From Candidatus Avisuccinivibrio pullicola (GTDB lineage Bacteria > Pseudomonadota > Gammaproteobacteria > Enterobacterales > Succinivibrionaceae): a DNA stretch of 64,000 bases. Shown here piece after piece: positions 3,539 to 14,710 of the stretch. The notes below the pieces were generated by a model, which saw only the letters and a program-made list of their open reading frames with translations, was not told the origin of the DNA and made no database searches. Location: positions 1,386-65,385 of the forward strand of contig DVOQ01000047.1 of NCBI GenBank assembly GCA_018713485.1. Reading direction: 5' to 3'. The number at the start of each line of letters is the position of its first letter. Positions within the stretch are counted from its first letter, which is position 1. The position numbers and the translations under genes are program-made.

Positions 3539-5074
3539 ATGGACTGGACCGGTGGCTACGTAACCGACATTCTCTACACTTACGGTTACTACTCTGAATT
3601 AAATCCCCTGAACGCACGCTTTCTGTGCCTTGTCAACGGTATCGCCTGCAGGAAAGAGTTTAAAAACGCCTGTGAGCTGGGCTTCGGTCAGGGCATGAGC
3701 ATCAACGTTCACGCCTGTTCCTCGAAGACGCACTGGTATGGCACGGACTTTAATCCCTCGCAGGTGGATTTTGCCAGGAGCCTTGCCCTGGACGCAGAGT
3801 TTACGGTTCATCTTTACGATGATTCCTTTGAGGATTTCGTCAATAATTCCGAGTTGCCGCAGTTTGACTTTATCGCCCTGCACGGGATCTGGTCCTGGGT
3901 TAACGACGCCGCGCGTGAGGCAATTCTCACCTTTATCCGCAAAAAGCTGACTGTAGGCGGCGTGCTCTACATTTCCTATAACGTAAACCCGGGCTTCCTG
4001 TCGCTGTTGCCCCTGCGCCATCTCGTCAAGCGCCATGCAGATCTGAACGGAGCCCCTCAGGGCAAGGAGCAGGCGGTGAAGGACAGCCTGACCTTCATTG
4101 ACCGTCTCTTTGCCTGCAATCCGCGCTACCTGACGCAAAATCCTCTCGTACAGGCGCAGTTCAGTAAGCTTGCCGGCAACGATCCCCATTACATCGCCCA
4201 TGAGTTCTTAAACGAACACTGGGATTTATGGCACTTTGACGAGCTTGCCGCCACGCTTGAGCAGGCCAAGGTGCAGTTTGCGGTCAGCGCGACGGTCAGT
4301 GAGAACATTGACAGCATCCATTTAAGCAAGGAGCAGCGTGCGGAACTTGCCGCCATTAAGGACCGTGATTTCCGTGAGACGGTGCGCGATTTCTTCTTAA
4401 ACACGCGCTTCAGACGCGATTACTTCATCAAGGGCGTGCGTCAGCTGACGCAGGATGAGCAGCGTGAGCAGCTGCTCTCCTTCCCCGTCATTCTGTTAGA
4501 GCCCCTGTCGCTCTTTAAGTATGAAACGCAGGGAACTCTGGGGCAGATTAAACTGGTAGGCGAGCTCTATGAGCCCATTCTCAAGGTACTCTCCGACTAC
4601 GCTCCACATACCCTGGGCGAAATTCTCGAGCGTACCGCTTCCGCGGGAGTGAACTACGGCTCCCTGGTGTCTGCCATCCTCATTCTCATGGGCAAGGGCT
4701 CGGTACGCGCCGCACAGAGTTATGACGAGGCGCTCGTCAGACAGTGTCAGCGCCTTAACGGCCGCATCCTAAGCCGCGCCACGGGGAGGGACGCATTAGA
4801 CGTCCTGGCCTCTCCCGTCATCGGCGGCGGTATCGGGGTCTCGCAGATGCAGCAGCTGTTAATCCTCGGCGCGGATTCAGGCACCATTCCCCTTGAAACC
4901 GATCCTTTAGCCCGGTATCTTGTGACCGTCCTGACGCAGATCGGTGCTACTGTCACGGTTAAGGACCGATCTCTTCCCTCTGACTCTCCCGAGGGCATGA
5001 AGGAGGCCCTGCTGCAGGCTGAGCGCTTCCTTGGCATGTTGCCTGTCTACCGTGCCTTGAAGTTATTGGAGTAA
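3539..5074 (+). CDS. Class I SAM-dependent methyltransferase with a long C-terminal regulatory-type domain
   Basis: Motif I ELGFGQG and the N-terminus WTGGYVTDILYTYGYYSELNP, typical of the methyltransferase plus methyltransferase-regulatory-domain family (recognition only). The substrate is unknown. Confidence 0.7.
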   Translation: MDWTGGYVTDILYTYGYYSELNPLNARFLCLVNGIACRKEFKNACELGFGQGMSINVHACSSKTHWYGTDFNPSQVDFARSLALDAEFTVHLYDDSFEDFVNNSELPQFDFIALHGIWSWVNDAAREAILTFIRKKLTVGGVLYISYNVNPGFLSLLPLRHLVKRHADLNGAPQGKEQAVKDSLTFIDRLFACNPRYLTQNPLVQAQFSKLAGNDPHYIAHEFLNEHWDLWHFDELAATLEQAKVQFAVSATVSENIDSIHLSKEQRAELAAIKDRDFRETVRDFFLNTRFRRDYFIKGVRQLTQDEQREQLLSFPVILLEPLSLFKYETQGTLGQIKLVGELYEPILKVLSDYAPHTLGEILERTASAGVNYGSLVSAILILMGKGSVRAAQSYDEALVRQCQRLNGRILSRATGRDALDVLASPVIGGGIGVSQMQQLLILGADSGTIPLETDPLARYLVTVLTQIGATVTVKDRSLPSDSPEGMKEALLQAERFLGMLPVYRALKLLE

Positions 5075-5647
5075 AGCAAGAGTTAGCTCTGGGATCCGCC
5101 CCGTTCCTCTAACAATGATTCATGTGTTAATGGTGCAGGTTAGTGATTTTTGCGAGTTTTTAGGCTTCTCTTTTATACAACTCGCAGGTGTTTATCCGAT
5201 TATCATAAATCCTGCACTTCTAATGGCATTAATTCTCCTTTCTTGCCTACGTTAAGGTATGCTTGATACGTTATGCGTAATTTTATCAAGAGTTAAAAAC
5301 CGCTTACTTTTGACATTGCTTGCGTTATGTGACATGACCATAAAAATGCACTTAGGTGAAAGTAACTGATACCATATGGTTTTTGTATTAACAGAACCAA
5401 AATATACAGGATTGATTCAAAAGATGAAAATCAAAGAGCGCTCTGGATTGCATTAGTAAGGTAATTTTAATAACATCGCACTTGGTACGGTATAATGAGA
5501 TTAGAGGGTCGGAGGAATAAGAAACTAATTTCGGCTCTTTAATTGTGCAGAACGAGATGCATCAGAACTCACTCCCATTCTGCAATGCAATTCTTCTGAA
5601 ATCCATCTGAGGAAGTGCTTTAGCCAAAAGTCTTTCTCGATGTGTGA

Positions 5648-6655
5648 ATGAAGAGATTGGTTCAAAAACATCTCTACTGGAGCAAGCCGGATATGCCATT
5701 TCTGGAAAAACTGGATGTACTGGAAGAAGGAATCTTAAAGTACAATGCGGCTTTGCTTAATATTCTCCTTAAAGATAGAACCACTGAAAAAAATATTATC
5801 TGGGCAACCTCTGACTACAGCTATCTGGGGGAACGCTTTGCGCCTACAGATCAAATCCTTCCTAGTGTCATCACCGGCAGACACTCCAAGGTAATTCAGC
5901 CCCGATCTGCTAAGGCATTAGAGAAGCAGATTTTGCGCACCAGGGAAAAGGCAGAGGTTTTTACCCCTTCATGGATTTGCAATGCACAGAATAATCTTAT
6001 CGACGACGAATGGTTTGGTCACAGTGGATCTTTCAATACAGAGCTCTCAAACAGCTGGACAGTTAATCCGAAGAAGATTAGCTTCCCGAAAGATAAAAGG
6101 CGCGACTGGAAAAACTATGTGGATGCGCGCAGGTTGGAAATAGCCTGTGGTGAGGCTCCTTATCTGGTGAGCCGATACGATACGGTGACGGCAGAGATCA
6201 TCGATCTCCCATCTAGAATTGGCTTGCTGGATCGCAAACTGCGTGTAGTCAATGAGAATGCCTCCGATGAAAAGGAATGGCTGAAATGGGCTTTTCGCGC
6301 CTTTGAGAGTATTTACGGTTTTGAGTATCAGGGAGATAACCTTCTCATTGCCAGAGAGAATTTGCTCTATACCTTTATTGATAATCTAAGATATGTATTA
6401 AAACGCGACCCTACCATTAATGAACTGCAAAAGATAGCGACCATCATCTCATGGAATTTGTGGCAAATGGATGGAACCACCTATAGGCCACCGCTTTATG
6501 CACTGCAAAGACAAGGTTATCAAGCCTCAATTTTTGATTCGTATGAAGAAACTGAGATGAAGATTCTTTGCTTAGAGAGCACTCCGTGTAAAATTAAAGA
6601 CTGGCGCACCAAAGAGATCGTGCAATATTATTCTCTGATCAAAGGGTATAAGTAA
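5648..6655 (+). CDS. MTase-like protein carrying only N-terminal-half (SAM-binding side) motifs; partner of the 1332-aa fusion
   Basis: KAEVFTPSWICNAQNN (motif X-like FTP at 5960-5968), RRLEIACGEAPYLVSRYD (motif I-like at 6143-6166) and YGFEYQGDNLLIARENL (motif II/III-like). No (D/N)PP(Y/F/W) motif; the expected position reads IISWNLWQMDG. The stop overlaps the next start (TAATG at 6653-6657). Confidence 0.6.
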   Translation: MKRLVQKHLYWSKPDMPFLEKLDVLEEGILKYNAALLNILLKDRTTEKNIIWATSDYSYLGERFAPTDQILPSVITGRHSKVIQPRSAKALEKQILRTREKAEVFTPSWICNAQNNLIDDEWFGHSGSFNTELSNSWTVNPKKISFPKDKRRDWKNYVDARRLEIACGEAPYLVSRYDTVTAEIIDLPSRIGLLDRKLRVVNENASDEKEWLKWAFRAFESIYGFEYQGDNLLIARENLLYTFIDNLRYVLKRDPTINELQKIATIISWNLWQMDGTTYRPPLYALQRQGYQASIFDSYEETEMKILCLESTPCKIKDWRTKEIVQYYSLIKGYK

Positions 6656-9600
6656 TGAAATCCCGATTTGGTAATGCTTTTGAGTATAAGCTGATTTACG
6701 TTTTTGCTATCCATGATGATGCCCATCAGGGTCTTCTGAAGATTGGTGAAACGACCATCAGACCGGAGACTTCTATTGATTCCCTGAGTCCCAACAGCGA
6801 AGAACTAAAAGATGCGGCACTTAAACGCATCCGGCAGTACACCTCTACCGCCGGAATTGCGGTAGAGCTTTTGTATACGGAACTTGCAACTCGTACGGTT
6901 AAAAATGAAAAAGGCCAGATCGTAATCGAAGCTTTTCACGATCATGATGTCCACCGTGTTCTCTTAAATTCCAATATTGAGCGCAAAAAACCTCATGGGG
7001 TCGGTGACAAGGGCGGGATCGAATGGTTTGAGGTGGATTTAGACACCGTCATAAGAGCCATTGAGGCAGTTAAGAAAAGTCAGACTAATCTGTCAGGTAT
7101 AGCCCTTCCTAAAGACCAGAAGCCTGTTCCTATAGTCTTCCGCCCTGAACAACAAGAAGCCATTGATAAAACCTTCAAGCATTTTAAAACCGGAGATCGC
7201 ATGCTCTGGAATGCCAAGATGCGTTTTGGCAAGACACTTACAGCACTGCAGTTGATCAAGAAATCCGGCTTTAAAAAGACCATAATCGTCACTCACAGGC
7301 CAGTAGTGGATGATGGCTGGTACAAAGATTTCAATAAAATTTTCACAGATAAGGAAATAATTTACGGTTCAAGAGGTCACGGAAATGATGATGTTGAAAA
7401 GCTGATCGACAGCGGCAAGGATTTCATTTACTTTGCATCACTGCAGGATCTCAGGGGGTCCTCAGCTGTAGGCGGCAAATTTGATAAGAACGATGCGGTG
7501 TTTCAAGAACACTGGGATCTGGTGATCGTTGACGAAGCCCATGAAGGAACTACCACTGACCTAGGTGATGAGGTCATCAAAAATATCGTTAAGGAAGGTG
7601 ATGGTTACCACACCAAATTGCTTGCTCTTTCTGGTACGCCTTTCAATATTGCCAGAGACTATGATGAAGAAAGCACCTTTGTCTGGGACTATGTCATGGA
7701 GCAGAGGAGCAAAGCACAATGGTATGAAGAGCACTTTGGTGATTCAAACCCTTATGATGAACTGCCTGAGCTTAATATCTATACCTACGACCTAGGAAAA
7801 ATTCTTACGGATAAAAGCTATGTGGAGCTTGAGGATAAGGCCTTTAATTTCCGCGAGTTCTTCAGAGTATGGACTGGAGACATCCGTTATGACCATAAGG
7901 AGATGCCTCTTGGGGCGCAGACAGGGGATTTTGTACACGAAGTAGATGTTAAGAGTTTTCTTAATCTGATAACAAGGGATGATCCTGACAGCTATTATCC
8001 GTATGCCAACGATGAATACCGTGCTCTGTTCCGTCATGCACTGTGGGTGGTACCGGGGGTAAAAGAGGCTCGGGCCTTAAGTCGGCTTCTTAAACAACAT
8101 CCTGTTTTTGGAATGTTTGATATCGTCAATGTAGCCGGTGATGGTGATGAAGAGGAAAGTTCCGATGATGCTCTTAAGAAGGTACGCGATGCCATTGATT
8201 TCGCTGGTAGTGACGGCTATACCATTACTCTGTCCTGCGGCAGGTTAACCACCGGAGTCACGGTTCCAGAATGGACTGCTGTATTTATGCTCGCAGGCTC
8301 ATACTCCACCTCGGCTGCCAATTACCTGCAGACCATTTTCCGTGTCCAGTCACCCTGTAACAAGGATGGAAGAGTTAAGCGCGGTTGTTACGCGTTCGAT
8401 TTTGCCCCTGACCGTACGCTGAAGATGGTGGCTGAAGCAGCGGCTCTGTCTTCCAAGACTAAGGCTGGTAAAACCAAGCCATCTGATCGCGCCATCATGA
8501 GCGAGTTTTTGAACTACTGTTCTGTTATTGCGGTAAGCGGTACGAAGATGAAACCCTACGACACTAGCCGCTTGCTGCAGCAATTAAAGAGAGCTTACGC
8601 AGAGCGCGCAGTATTGAGCGGTTTTGATGACAACAATCTGTATAACGATGAACTGCTGCAGCTAGATAACTTAGAGTATGAGCGTTTTAAAAAACTTGGA
8701 AAGATAGTAGGCTCGTCTAGGCCTACTCAGAGAATTGATGAAATCGATATCAATGATCAGGGCTTTACGGATGAAAAGCACGAGCATAACGCCAAGGATG
8801 ATAAAAAACCGCCACGCAACCTGTCCGAAGAAGAAAAAAAGCTCCGACAGGAGCAAAAGGAAAGGCAAAAGAAGAGAAAAGAAGCCATTTCCATCTTGCG
8901 CGGGATATCCATCCGCATGCCGCTTATGATTTATGGTGCCAACATCCCCATGGATGAAGATATCACCATGGAAAGTTTGATAAAGATTGTGGATGATACC
9001 TCCTGGGACGAGTTCATGCCTAATGGTGTCACAAAGGAGATGTTCCGAGATTTTATCAGGTATTATGACCCTGATGTCTTTGTGGCCGCCAGTCGCAGGA
9101 TCCGTGCTATTGCAGAGAACGCCGACTCCTATTCACCTTTGGAACGGGTCAAGAAGATCACGGAGCTTTTCTCCTACTTCAAAAATCCGGATAAAGAAAC
9201 TGTCCTGACTCCGTGGCGTGTGGTCAATATGCACCTTAGCGACTGTCTGGGTGGTTACGACTTTTTTGATGACCACCACGAAAAAGTCTTGAGTGAACCC
9301 CGCTTTGTCGATCGCGGTAAGGAAACCGCGGATACCTTTGCCAATCCTAAGGCCCGCATTCTTGAGATTAATTCCAAGACAGGACTTTATCCCCTGTACG
9401 TAACGTACAGTATATTCCGCAGTCGCTGTGCTTTTTGCACCGAAGAACTGACTGATGACAAACAACGGGAACTTTGGGATAGCACAGTAAAGGAAAACGT
9501 CTTCGTGCTCTGTAAGACCCCCATGGCGCGACAGATTACCATTCGCACACTTATCGGATATAGAAATGTAACTGTAAATGCTGTTTACTTCAACCATCTG

Positions 9601-10653
9601 ATCGACACTATTAAGAATGACTTACAGCACTTTACCGCTAAGCTTCACAAATCTAGCTTCTGGAACAAAGGAGACAGTCCAATCATGCAGTTTAACGCAG
9701 TAGTGGGTAATCCACCTTATCAGATCCCTGATGGGGGAAGCAAAGCCAGTGCCACGCCCGTCTACAATCATTTTGTTGATTTGGCGCGCAACCTTAAACC
9801 TGACTATGTTTCGATGATCATCCCTGCACGCTGGTACAGTGCCGGTCGTGGCTTAGAAAAGTTTCGCGAAAGCATGCTGCAGGATCCCCGCATTCAGAAG
9901 CTGTTTGACTTCTCTGACTCTAATGACTGCTTCAAAGGCGTAGATATTGCTGGCGGGATCTGTTATTTCTTATGGAACAGGCTTTACGATGGTACTGGCG
10001 GTTGCCGTGTGCTTACCAATCACAATGGCTCAATTCAGCAAACGCTACGCAAACTCAATGAGAACAGCATTTTTGTCCGTCATCCTCAGGCGCTGACCAT
10101 TCTCAATAAGGTAAAACAGCATACTAAAGAGTTTTATGCATCCAGAGTAAGCCCAAGAAAGCCGTTTGGCCTAACAACCAATGTAGTTCCAACTAAGGAT
10201 GGAGATCTGATACTGCGCTGCAATAAAGGAACTGGTCCGTTTAGAAGAGAATTGGTAACGGGGTCTTTAGAGTGGGTCGACAAATGGAAAGTTATCATTT
10301 CGTACTTATCCTACGACCATGCTGGTCGGGCAGATAAAAACGGTCAACGGCGAATCTTATCTACTATCGAAATACTGCCTCCTCATGCTGTGTGCACTGA
10401 GACTTATCTTGTGGTTGATGTGTTTGATGATGAAACCAGTGCAAGGAATCTTCTTCAGTATCTTAAGACTAAGTTTGTGCGCTTCATGTTGTCACTGTTG
10501 GTAACAACGCAACATATTACCAAATCAAGTTTTGCTGATGTACCAATTTTGGACATGTCTAAGGTTTGGACGGATGATGAGCTGTATACCAGATATAAAC
10601 TTACAGATGAAGAGATTAGTTTTATTGAGAGCATGATAAAACCGATGTTGTAA
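6655..10653 (+). CDS. 1332-aa fusion: T5orf172/GIY-YIG-like domain + DEAH SF2 helicase + charged coiled coil + gamma-class N6-adenine MTase-like module + C-terminal domain
   Basis: N-terminus LIYVFAI..LLKIGETT..HDVHRVL..IEWFEVD. Helicase motifs MRFGKT (7225-7236), VDEAHEG (DEAH 7531-7542), LSGTP, GRLTTGVTVPEW and QTIFRVQSP. K/E-rich stretch at 8752-8889. MTase-like motifs ETVLTPWRVVNMH, ILEINSKTGLYPLY and VVGNPPYQ (NPPY 9709-9720), followed by IIPARWYSAGRGLEKFR..GGICYFLW. The protein ends LTDEEISFIESMIKPML. Confidence 0.75.
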   Translation: MKSRFGNAFEYKLIYVFAIHDDAHQGLLKIGETTIRPETSIDSLSPNSEELKDAALKRIRQYTSTAGIAVELLYTELATRTVKNEKGQIVIEAFHDHDVHRVLLNSNIERKKPHGVGDKGGIEWFEVDLDTVIRAIEAVKKSQTNLSGIALPKDQKPVPIVFRPEQQEAIDKTFKHFKTGDRMLWNAKMRFGKTLTALQLIKKSGFKKTIIVTHRPVVDDGWYKDFNKIFTDKEIIYGSRGHGNDDVEKLIDSGKDFIYFASLQDLRGSSAVGGKFDKNDAVFQEHWDLVIVDEAHEGTTTDLGDEVIKNIVKEGDGYHTKLLALSGTPFNIARDYDEESTFVWDYVMEQRSKAQWYEEHFGDSNPYDELPELNIYTYDLGKILTDKSYVELEDKAFNFREFFRVWTGDIRYDHKEMPLGAQTGDFVHEVDVKSFLNLITRDDPDSYYPYANDEYRALFRHALWVVPGVKEARALSRLLKQHPVFGMFDIVNVAGDGDEEESSDDALKKVRDAIDFAGSDGYTITLSCGRLTTGVTVPEWTAVFMLAGSYSTSAANYLQTIFRVQSPCNKDGRVKRGCYAFDFAPDRTLKMVAEAAALSSKTKAGKTKPSDRAIMSEFLNYCSVIAVSGTKMKPYDTSRLLQQLKRAYAERAVLSGFDDNNLYNDELLQLDNLEYERFKKLGKIVGSSRPTQRIDEIDINDQGFTDEKHEHNAKDDKKPPRNLSEEEKKLRQEQKERQKKRKEAISILRGISIRMPLMIYGANIPMDEDITMESLIKIVDDTSWDEFMPNGVTKEMFRDFIRYYDPDVFVAASRRIRAIAENADSYSPLERVKKITELFSYFKNPDKETVLTPWRVVNMHLSDCLGGYDFFDDHHEKVLSEPRFVDRGKETADTFANPKARILEINSKTGLYPLYVTYSIFRSRCAFCTEELTDDKQRELWDSTVKENVFVLCKTPMARQITIRTLIGYRNVTVNAVYFNHLIDTIKNDLQHFTAKLHKSSFWNKGDSPIMQFNAVVGNPPYQIPDGGSKASATPVYNHFVDLARNLKPDYVSMIIPARWYSAGRGLEKFRESMLQDPRIQKLFDFSDSNDCFKGVDIAGGICYFLWNRLYDGTGGCRVLTNHNGSIQQTLRKLNENSIFVRHPQALTILNKVKQHTKEFYASRVSPRKPFGLTTNVVPTKDGDLILRCNKGTGPFRRELVTGSLEWVDKWKVIISYLSYDHAGRADKNGQRRILSTIEILPPHAVCTETYLVVDVFDDETSARNLLQYLKTKFVRFMLSLLVTTQHITKSSFADVPILDMSKVWTDDELYTRYKLTDEEISFIESMIKPML

Positions 10654-13048: not shown

Positions 13049-14710
13049 ATGAGGGGTGTTGCATATGAGTTGCCGTTAGGAGAAACCTGCTTCAGGCGTC
13101 TGAGGCAGTCAGGAACCAGGATCTATGTCGATAAGACCGCTCTGATTTACAGACTGGTGAACGAAGACCGGTTCTGTCTGTTAACGAGGCCGCGCCGCTT
13201 TGGTAAAAGCTTACTGCTCTCTACAATAGAAAGTCTCTTTCGTGATGGACTTAGGTATTTTACGGATCTGGAAATTGCAAAACTCTGGAAAGAGGAATTA
13301 TGTTGCGTACTGTATCTCGATCTAAGCGGGATTAATCTAAGCTCAGTGCAGTCCCTTAACCGTTCCCTGGTATCCCTGTTAAGACAGGCTGCAGAACAGA
13401 ATGGACTAAATACCGCAACTTTGCCGGATGAAGATCCGATTACGGCTCTGAACGAATTTGTGCGTCTGTCGCTTAGCCGCGACGTGGTGATTTTAGTGGA
13501 TGAGTATGACTGTCCTGTGCGGGCCCAGTTTGCGGATCCGGCACTGCGTGCTGACGTACTCAATGTCATGAAAGCTTTTTTCACAACGGTTAAAAGCCTG
13601 GCTAAGTACTGCCGTTTCATGATGTTCAGCGGTATTACACGCAATACCCTAAGCGATGAGTATTCATGTCTGAATTTCCTTACCGATGTAAGCCTCGATC
13701 CTAAATACAGCACTCTCCTCGGTTACACGGAAGAGGAACTGCAGCAGTATTTTGCTCCGTACCTCAGGCATATTCAGGAAATCTATCAGCTCAGCGATAA
13801 TGAGGTCATCAGTAAAATCCGCTTCTTTTATGATGGGTACTCGTTTGACTGTTTTGGAAAGCAGAAGGTTTACAACAACTGGTCTATTTTAAGGCTCTTT
13901 AGAGATCCGCTGTGCTCGTTTGGTGAGTACTGGTATGAAAGCGGGGATCTGAGTGAGTATCTAAAAGATTATTTTCTTGAGAAAAGTCTTTCCAGTGAGG
14001 GGCCGCTGCTCTCTAAAATGCTCGACAGTCTGCATCAGGATACCTACATCAGTATCTCCTCGCTTAAGTTTGTTCCCGAGTTTAACGAGGTGAATGCCCC
14101 GGCTCTTTTGTTTTATCTCGGCTATCTGACCATAAAGGACGCGTTCGACAGAAAATATCCGCAGCGTCTGGTACTGACCTTGCCTAATCACGAAATCGAG
14201 TCCTCCTTAGCTAAACTTTACACGAGGGTGATGTATCGCAGAGATCCTGAGGAGGTGGCAGGCTTTTTTGATGCACTGCTGGGAACGCTGCACGACTACG
14301 CTCATCTGTCAGAACTTGCCTCCAGACTGGAGCTGCTCTACAACACCTATTCGTATGATTCTCAGATTTACCGTAAGGAAGCCCTGTTAAGGGACGCCCT
14401 GTATGTGGGATGCTGTATGCACCTTATTCCGGTATGCAGAGAAAAGGTCAATGCTAAGGGACGCTCGGATCTGGAAATCAGCCTCAACGGGGAGAGAGTG
14501 GTCTTTGAGTTTAAGGTAGCATCTACGCCAGACAGGGTCGCAGCTAAACTTTCTGAGGCTTCGCAGCAGATGGAGGAGCGCTCTTACGGAGAGGAGCTTC
14601 CTGAGGCCAGACTTACCCGCTATTCCATAGTGGTGTGCTCGGCAACCCGTAAAGTGGCTGCGATTACAGCCCGTCAGGGGGGCGAAGTTTTAGGCCGCTA
14701 TCTGGCCTGA
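13049..14710 (+). CDS. Predicted AAA-ATPase-like N-terminal domain fused to a PD-(D/E)xK nuclease-like C-terminal domain
   Basis: IYVDKTALIYRLV..LLTRPRRFGKSLLLSTIESLF is the signature of the 'predicted AAA-ATPase' family. The C-terminal GRSDLEISLNGERVVFEFK fits a PD-(D/E)xK core. The gene is lower in GC than its neighbours. Confidence 0.75.
   Translation: MRGVAYELPLGETCFRRLRQSGTRIYVDKTALIYRLVNEDRFCLLTRPRRFGKSLLLSTIESLFRDGLRYFTDLEIAKLWKEELCCVLYLDLSGINLSSVQSLNRSLVSLLRQAAEQNGLNTATLPDEDPITALNEFVRLSLSRDVVILVDEYDCPVRAQFADPALRADVLNVMKAFFTTVKSLAKYCRFMMFSGITRNTLSDEYSCLNFLTDVSLDPKYSTLLGYTEEELQQYFAPYLRHIQEIYQLSDNEVISKIRFFYDGYSFDCFGKQKVYNNWSILRLFRDPLCSFGEYWYESGDLSEYLKDYFLEKSLSSEGPLLSKMLDSLHQDTYISISSLKFVPEFNEVNAPALLFYLGYLTIKDAFDRKYPQRLVLTLPNHEIESSLAKLYTRVMYRRDPEEVAGFFDALLGTLHDYAHLSELASRLELLYNTYSYDSQIYRKEALLRDALYVGCCMHLIPVCREKVNAKGRSDLEISLNGERVVFEFKVASTPDRVAAKLSEASQQMEERSYGEELPEARLTRYSIVVCSATRKVAAITARQGGEVLGRYLA

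Follow-up and report, generated by a model that had tools for sequence, protein, structure and literature searches.

How a single polypeptide that appears to combine a nuclease, a DNA motor and a DNA methyltransferase (MTase) might restrict and modify DNA is a question raised by an open reading frame (ORF) of 1332 codons in the genome of Candidatus Avisuccinivibrio pullicola (contig DVOQ01000047.1). The ORF lies in the 64,000-nucleotide stretch that we analyzed (hereinafter the window), and an original prediction made from the DNA alone had presented it as a candidate for a new single-chain enzyme. We found that it is the second gene (gene 2; 6655-10653) of a conserved pair, whose first member (gene 1; 5648-6655) codes for half of an MTase. 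We consider it probable that the two genes constitute a horizontally acquired, ATP-dependent, Type ISP-like restriction-modification (R-M) system with a GIY-YIG-type nuclease. The family that they define is very common, has been annotated only generically and is apparently uncharacterized; a literature search recovered no biochemical study of the gene 2 family.

Domain architecture and conservation of the gene 2 protein

The motifs and structural models of the gene 2 protein identify it as a fusion of a nuclease, a DNA motor and an adenine methylase, belonging to a family of predicted restriction enzymes. An identical protein is held by NCBI from a Candidatus Avisuccinivibrio metagenome-assembled genome, under the name 'Eco57I restriction-modification methylase domain-containing protein'. 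The ORF and every motif quoted in the original prediction were recovered at or close to the places assigned to them, namely LIYVFAI (13-19), LLKIGETT (27-34), HDVHRVL (97-103) and IEWFEVD (122-128) in the N-terminal region, MRFGKT (189-194), VDEAHEG (292-298), LSGTP (325-329), GRLTTGVTVPEW (529-540) and QTIFRVQSP (559-567) in the helicase, and TPWRVVNMH (852-860), ILEINSKTGLYPLY (902-915) and VVGNPPYQ (1016-1023) in the MTase. The domain order proposed there, running from a GIY-YIG-superfamily domain through a superfamily 2 (SF2) helicase and a gamma-class MTase to a target-recognition domain (TRD), was likewise borne out by Pfam searches, AlphaFold2 (AF2) models and Foldseek comparisons (Table 1).

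The N-terminal domain was recovered by the Pfam T5orf172 model with 23.6 bits (cut-off 20) when the first 160 residues were searched alone, and with a sub-threshold 17.1 bits in a scan of the whole protein. Homologs in which this part is encoded separately are annotated as 'GIY-YIG nuclease family protein', and the family is invariant at Y15, K29, G31, R58, Y62, H100, E123 and W124. The T5orf172 domain belongs to the GIY-YIG superfamily, and one of its members, the counter-defense protein Odn of phage ICP1, has been characterized biochemically (PMC9040626). In the adjacent SF2 region, residues 161-330 match the Pfam ResIII model (E = 3.6e-16), with weaker matches to DEAD and SNF2. The RecA1 lobe carries RFGKT, DEAHEG and SGTP, and is followed by an insertion of about 120 residues and by a RecA2 lobe with TTGV and QTIFRVQ; this lobe was assigned from its conserved motifs alone, no match to Pfam Helicase_C being found in the gene 2 protein. 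All five of these ATPase motifs are invariant in homologs down to 38% overall identity, as are the GNPPYQ signature of the MTase and, in the T5orf172 domain, Y15, K29/G31, R58, H100 and E123. Between the motor and the MTase lies a segment for which the original prediction had proposed an extreme richness in lysine and glutamate, and indeed 57% of its residues (aa 700-745) are charged (K/E/R/D) as against 28% in the whole protein. Together with the remainder of the post-helicase region and the helices that precede the MTase module (H13-H106 in the AF2 model), it may couple the motor to the MTase.

The MTase was detected by the Pfam Eco57I model (aa 947-1093, E = 2.8e-27), and an AF2 model of residues 760-1332 built on 32 homologs (predicted local distance difference test, pLDDT, 84.5; predicted template-modeling score, pTM, 0.81) recovered the gamma-class fold when compared with known structures by Foldseek. 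Over about 550 columns the model matches gamma-class MTase and TRD structures, including CamA (E = 4e-15, TM 0.5), PglX/BrxX of BREX systems, M.BseCI, BpuSI, DrdV, LlaBIII (E = 2e-8) and M.TaqI, with the alignments to CamA, BseCI and TaqI covering the modeled segment in its entirety. Residues 1106-1290 are the least conserved, with 16-50% identity (mean 26%) as against 44-59% in the other catalytic domains; this rapid evolution fits a TRD with diversifying specificity and, along with the structural matches to MTase-TRD proteins, supports the earlier suggestion that the C-terminus recognizes the target. The PADLOC model REase_MTase_IIG (1359 positions) also matches the gene 2 protein colinearly (E = 1.5e-58), aligning residues 161-309 with model positions 157-305 in the helicase and residues 1011-1331 with positions 1011-1359. 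This match to a named system argues against rarity, although the architecture implied by the name differs from that found here, which includes a motor and a GIY-YIG-type domain.

The SAM (S-adenosylmethionine)-binding part of this MTase, which we term N-half', departs from the norm in a conserved manner. Its motif X is LTPW, its motif I (LEINSKTGLY) has a lysine in the glycine loop, its motif II (VLCKT) lacks an acidic residue and its motif III reads VNAVYFNHL; neither a canonical motif I glycine loop (SKTG is found instead) nor a motif II acid (C-K-T is found instead) is therefore present. The original prediction had remarked on the odd loop, which was a good lead and is real, but its description as degenerate did not hold. 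The motif LEINSK[ST]GLYPLY is invariant in homologs down to 38% identity, which rules out random decay. The absence of the motif II acid is a further departure that had not been remarked upon, and this position is always C/A-K-T in gene 2 homologs. Being invariant across homologs, the motif I and II variants are selected ones.

Table 1. Features of the two-gene locus, in window coordinates
Feature	Position	Strand	Description or basis
Gene 1 ('N-half' protein)	5648-6655	+	SAM-binding subdomain alone of an Eco57I-family gamma-MTase
Gene 2	6655-10653	+	ATG start, 1332 aa, uninterrupted multidomain ORF
T5orf172 domain (GIY-YIG superfamily), aa 13-139, predicted nuclease	6691-7071	+	Pfam PF10544; MUG113 second
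SF2 helicase-like ATPase, aa 161-600	7135-8454	+	Pfam ResIII and invariant motifs
Post-helicase region, K/E-rich linker (aa 700-745) and helical region (aa 751-845)	8455-9189	+	
N-half', variant SAM-binding-type subdomain, aa 846-1010	9190-9684	+	AF2 strands, hhalign, shared K[ST]G variant
Catalytic MTase half, aa 1011-1105	9685-9969	+	Begins at beta4 (FNAVVGNPPYQ); Pfam Eco57I, invariant GNPPY
TRD and C-terminal helices, aa 1106-1332	9970-10650	+	Foldseek span, lowest conservation
Promoter-like site upstream of gene 1	5467-5496	+	TTAATA-18-TATAAT, 10/12 consensus positions

A half-methylase partner and its permuted fusions

Gene 1 lies directly upstream of the large gene in 16/16 related full-length genome loci that have upstream sequence, and in the window its stop codon overlaps the start of gene 2 by one base (TAATG). 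This conserved, overlapping half-MTase gene speaks against the view of the gene 2 product as a self-sufficient single chain. Small equivalent genes also precede the homologs on Lactococcus and Lysinibacillus plasmids. The start of gene 1 is ambiguous: the ATG at 5648 yields 335 residues, and that at 5693, which is the NCBI call and the start in most homologs, yields 320. The protein contains motifs X (EVFTPSW, TaqI-like), I (LEIACGEAPYL), II (YGFE) and III (WNLWQMDG), and ends before beta4, with neither NPPY nor a TRD, so that of the parts of a complete MTase it has no motif IV, no motifs V-VIII and no TRD. Shorter N-halves (214-260 aa, with a motif I that is canonical throughout, LEPACGSGNFL or LEPAAGDGNFL) precede the homologs in Actinobacteria and on Lactococcus and Lysinibacillus plasmids, and all homologs of 214-335 aa stop at the same point. 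Gene 1 is recognized by the PADLOC model MTase_II (PDLC03390, E = 7e-113), and its product is labeled 'restriction endonuclease subunit M' at NCBI. Pfam returned no match to it, and no NCBIfam model fits either protein. Its AF2 model (pLDDT 75.6, core 88-96) contains only three Rossmann strands (beta1-beta3), and in Foldseek searches of the PDB nothing was found with E below 1, with HsdM, DrdV and BsaXI appearing only at E 3-5, which is no evidence of relationship. After motif III most of the N-half proteins examined carry a short tail motif with the consensus QLSLFD (QASIFD at ~6450-6500 in the window copy), which sits in the linker before beta4 of fused MTases of about 650 aa and could be a docking peptide.

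The meaning of this truncated form emerged from a profile search with the gene 1 family against 1.84 billion representatives, which recovered 2231 relatives. Among the best 150 of these, 87 are short (<=450 aa) and devoid of NPPY, and 33 measure some 650 aa (581-780) and have their NPPY about 175 residues past motif I; nine of ten sampled longer relatives match Pfam Eco57I. In MAFFT alignments the small protein of the window is colinear with residues 1 to ~315 of 649-670-aa MTases from three related loci (L031, L032 and L034) and stops exactly at the start of their MKFDxVIGNPPYQ segment, and the rest of these MTases lines up colinearly with residues 1011-1332 of the large protein (MQFNAVVGNPPYQ...), for which BLASTP gives 36% identity to the C-terminal portion of the L031 MTase (649 aa). 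The 650-aa MTase is followed by a T5orf172-SF2 protein, whose homology to the window protein covers residues 24-810 of the latter. Apart from the L031 copy, which is truncated where its contig ends, there are two complete versions (1116 and 1124 aa), and these terminate after motif III in a Lys-variant half of their own (IFTP..., DLYMKSGLY, YGLAPT, NLLDTL).

Three layouts can be distinguished on this basis. In layout A, a three-gene version found in Actinobacteria and Variovorax, a gene for an N-half precedes one for N-half'-catalytic half-TRD, which is followed by a T5orf172-SF2 gene. In layout B, that of the window and of most relatives, the N-half gene precedes one encoding T5orf172-SF2-N-half'-catalytic half-TRD. 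In layout C, found in L031-L035 and, with an IS256 element at the junction, in B. longum, N-half-catalytic half-TRD precedes T5orf172-SF2-N-half'. The versions in L020 and L036 are split into three genes. The Lys variant characterizes N-half' in all layouts (SKTG/C-K-T in B, TKSG/GIGIT in A and MKSG/GLAPT in C), and the motif II Glu is retained in the canonical half and never present in the helicase-linked half. Every complete system therefore contains two SAM-binding-type halves and a single catalytic half with a TRD. An hhalign comparison of the N-half' subdomain with the gene 1 family aligned motifs X and I with a similar insert between them; the match is modest (E = 1.7e-4) and needed subdomain alignments that included type A and type C sequences, and nothing was found when the gene 1 family was compared with the alignment of the full-length large protein. 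Judged by these shared motifs, N-half and N-half' are distant paralogs, and the duplicated, permutable SAM-binding half is the distinctive feature of the family. On the B. longum plasmid p1 (L037, 1470-8285) the IS256 transposase gene splits a type C MTase near the natural split boundary into an N-half of 328 aa, named 'restriction endonuclease subunit M', and an NPPY+TRD piece of 383 aa.

Predicted mechanism, related systems and alternatives

Type ISP enzymes combine ATP-driven translocation, collision-dependent cleavage at head-to-head sites and hemimethylation of an asymmetric site. They share with the gene 2 protein the order of an N-terminal nuclease, an SF2 ATPase, a linker or coupler, a gamma-class N6-adenine (N6A) MTase and, at the C-terminus, a TRD, and the gene 2 protein accordingly has its SF2 ATPase between nuclease and MTase, and its gamma-class N6A MTase followed by the TRD. 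At the level of fold, the Foldseek match to LlaBIII noted above (PDB 4xqk) links the MTase-TRD model to this type, and both families are carried by Lactococcus plasmids. This agrees with the original prediction of Type ISP-like logic with a different nuclease fold. The Type ISP nuclease is an Mrr-type PD-(D/E)xK domain, whereas the window protein begins with T5orf172/MUG113 (GIY-YIG), and no PD-(D/E)xK family was found at its N-terminus in Pfam scans. Unlike the window system, with its conserved second gene for a half-MTase and the non-canonical motifs I and II of its large protein, Type ISP enzymes act as single polypeptides (PMC3874165). The predicted action is thus Type ISP-like, yet the system falls outside that type because it has no Mrr nuclease, no sequence homology to LlaGI/LlaBIII and no lone polypeptide.

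The same three functional parts recur in the YeeABC-type clusters, which combine an MmeI-like MTase, a DEAD helicase and a T5orf172/GIY-YIG domain, and the likeness is one of parts list. DnmA-YeeB-YeeC comprises three separate proteins in another order, and its MmeI-like MTase has a normal single SAM-binding half, with no half-MTase partner reported; the window MTase matches Pfam Eco57I and not MmeI_Mtase. The combination is also less novel than had been proposed, as Morgan et al. (2009) had already foreseen an R-M type made up of an MTase, a DEAD helicase and a GIY-YIG nuclease, both in YeeA/B/C, which they predicted to be Type I-like, and in 'large single polypeptides' (PMC2731913), and Sisakova et al. 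(2013) mention relatives with GIY-YIG nucleases (PMC3553950). Type IIG enzymes (Eco57I, MmeI, BpuSI, DrdV) also join an Eco57I-family gamma-MTase, a TRD and a nuclease in one chain, but have a PD-ExK nuclease, no ATPase motor and fixed-distance cutting, as opposed to the 440-aa SF2 ATPase and GIY-YIG-type domain of the window protein; moreover, the companion MTase of Eco57I is complete and gene 1 encodes a half. The presence of the motor excludes a strict Type IIG assignment. Split and permuted DNA MTases also occur naturally, as in the two-subunit m5C enzymes M.AquI and M.EcoHK31I and in the permutations that define the alpha, beta and gamma classes, and their SAM-binding (X, I-III) and catalytic (IV-VIII) subdomains behave as separable modules. 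The window family differs in having two SAM-binding-type halves per catalytic half, which across genomes is fused to either. MANTIS / Gao_RL (MtsABCD) is also a methylation-based defense, with an MTase that needs accessory proteins and a helicase-nuclease that restricts, but it is built from four genes, uses an AAA+ loader and a PLD nuclease, includes an MtsB without an MTase-like fold, and gives no indication of homology to the window system (10.64898/2026.09.23.753747).

Based on these comparisons we propose that the TRD and gamma-MTase module at the C-terminus of the gene 2 protein would recognize a short DNA site and would then do one of two things: methylate a host adenine or, where the DNA is unmodified, turn on the SF2 motor. 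The motor would then translocate on double-stranded DNA, and the N-terminal T5orf172/GIY-YIG nuclease would cut at a distance. The gene 1 protein would be an obligate subunit, contributing a SAM-binding half that is canonical and comes from the same MTase lineage. Given the lysine within the glycine loop and the missing motif II acid in the corresponding half of the large protein, the small protein most likely supplies or controls SAM-dependent methylation; it may complete the SAM site or regulate it, or the two halves may take turns. A specific form of such alternation, rather unlikely in our estimate, is that the catalytic half and TRD paired with the gene 1 half would form a SAM-loaded MTase, and paired with the Lys-variant half a SAM-less reader that triggers translocation and cleavage, the exchange acting as a switch between modification and restriction; it would explain why the catalytic half has been fused in evolution to either partner. 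The wider setting of these genes, comprising a low-GC island, plasmid and phage records and neighboring integrases, points to a mobile, defense-like context, and yeeAB, a system of equivalent parts, protects Vibrio crassostreae from phages (10.1101/2021.05.05.442762), which favors the R-M proposal.

Several observations weigh against this proposal. The non-canonical SAM pocket of the large protein suggests that its MTase may not methylate, and AF2 packs strands beta1-beta3 of N-half' in cis, rather than the gene 1 half, on the catalytic half, which gives gene 1 no defined role; layout C, unlike this packing, joins the canonical half covalently to the catalytic half. The T5orf172 score is modest and many T5orf172 proteins are uncharacterized. 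Sequence searches of all PDB chains with the large protein, the small protein and the family profiles gave nothing useful: phmmer and the family profile yielded no match at E <= 0.1 even with 4xqk among the chains, no similarity to LlaGI/LlaBIII or to a solved helicase-nuclease was seen, and the helicase had no PDB sequence match. The searchable literature holds no methylation, ATPase, nuclease or phage-protection data for any family member, and the family is described in none of the lactococcal defense and methylome papers, a 2025 R-M review and the MANTIS preprint. Lastly, DnmA-YeeB-YeeC of B. subtilis, with equivalent parts, confers neither restriction nor phage protection (PMC9973331).

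One alternative is a sensor-effector that does not methylate, in which the MTase-like module, having lost SAM binding, would only read DNA through site recognition and base flipping and license the motor and nuclease, with the small protein as a SAM sensor or regulator. Self-protection would then be non-epigenetic or come from another MTase. The Lys substitution and missing acid of the helicase-linked half in all three layouts agree with this, as does the gene 1 protein, which with no TRD or NPPY cannot be an independent site-specific MTase. However, GNPPYQ and the entire catalytic half are invariant, and layout C joins a gene-1-type half covalently to NPPY and TRD, giving a normal full-length MTase of the Eco57I family that Pfam matches completely, which together make such a sensor a fairly unlikely solution. 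M.TaqI, too, carries a residue other than Gly at the first of the Gly positions in motif I.

A role without active defense, either as an MTase that is orphan or epigenetic and whose restriction partners have decayed, or as a selfish addiction cassette of the kind proposed for DnmA-YeeB-YeeC, draws on the lack of a restriction or phage phenotype in that B. subtilis cluster (PMC9973331) and on decayed family copies such as L016 and the IS256-interrupted L037. Both window genes are nonetheless intact and translationally coupled, all ATPase, nuclease-type and MTase motifs are under strong purifying selection across phyla, and the family is widespread on plasmids and phages, so we hold this role to be distinctly improbable. 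Still further from likely is a classical Eco57I-type arrangement, a bifunctional R-M enzyme with a separate, complete companion MTase from the upstream gene. PADLOC and NCBI do name the upstream protein an MTase or 'subunit M', but a complete companion is rejected by its termination before beta4/NPPY without a TRD, by the like termination of its 214-335-aa homologs, and by an AF2 model with three Rossmann strands and no significant match to an MTase structure.

Distribution, genomic neighborhood and significance

The two-gene R-M system that we favor belongs to a family that is neither rare nor, contrary to what had been supposed, new. A word-indexed search found at least 8000 clusters of full-length homologs, both proteins already bear names at NCBI, and a PADLOC model (REase_MTase_IIG) recovers the larger. 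The best 120 full-length homologs are 57-100% identical to the window protein, and related loci occur in Akkermansia, Verrucomicrobia, Bacteroidales, Clostridia, Bacilli, Kiritimatiellae, Ignavibacteriae and Actinobacteria. The family is present in 88 plasmid records, chiefly of Enterococcus, Lactococcus and lactobacilli, and in a few phage records, and integrases adjoin some homologs; a search through 5426 complete genomes of E. coli recovered no copy. It thus ranks among the more abundant predicted R-M-like families that are apparently uncharacterized, with members in Bacillota, Bacteroidota, Verrucomicrobiota, Actinomycetota and Pseudomonadota. If our proposal is correct, it would carry the Type ISP principle over to a nuclease of the GIY-YIG type, and its variable TRD on a conserved scaffold could yield new specificities. 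As a natural system of '1.5 MTases' in three permuted fusion layouts it poses a defined assembly problem, and those of its members that reside on plasmids of dairy starters and clinical enterococci may hold back phage infection and the transfer of genes.

In the window both genes lie in a 5.5-kb island of low GC (0.44 vs 0.57), flanked on one side by genes for a ZntA-like ATPase and a class-I MTase and on the other by tyrS/rpiA; no attachment (att)-like repeats or tRNA genes were found as borders at its flanks. The promoter-like site ahead of gene 1 was recognized solely by its match to the consensus, and the regional count of such sites is not above that in shuffled sequence. The class-I SAM MTase (3539-5074, + strand; 511 aa) matches MethyTransf_Reg (PF10119) and, weakly, PADLOC mad2 (E = 1e-5). 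Its GC content resembles that of the host and related loci lack it; on these grounds it was rejected as a member of the system, and it probably lies outside the island.

Some related loci are rearranged or have additional neighbors. In Limosilactobacillus equigenerosi (L016, 6001-11600) the copy is decayed or rearranged, with a fragmented large gene and the N-half ORF downstream. In L032 (13509-17953) and L033 (5825-8346) genes on the opposite strand for a 408-aa protein, a 746-aa HATPase_c_3 protein and an N6_N4 MTase stand beside the type C system and may represent another defense module. In the window itself, a second low-GC patch (~0.46) just past rpiA contains a gene (13049-14710, + strand) for a 553-aa protein with AAA-ATPase_like (PF09820, E = 2.9e-39) and PDDEXK_9 nuclease domains.

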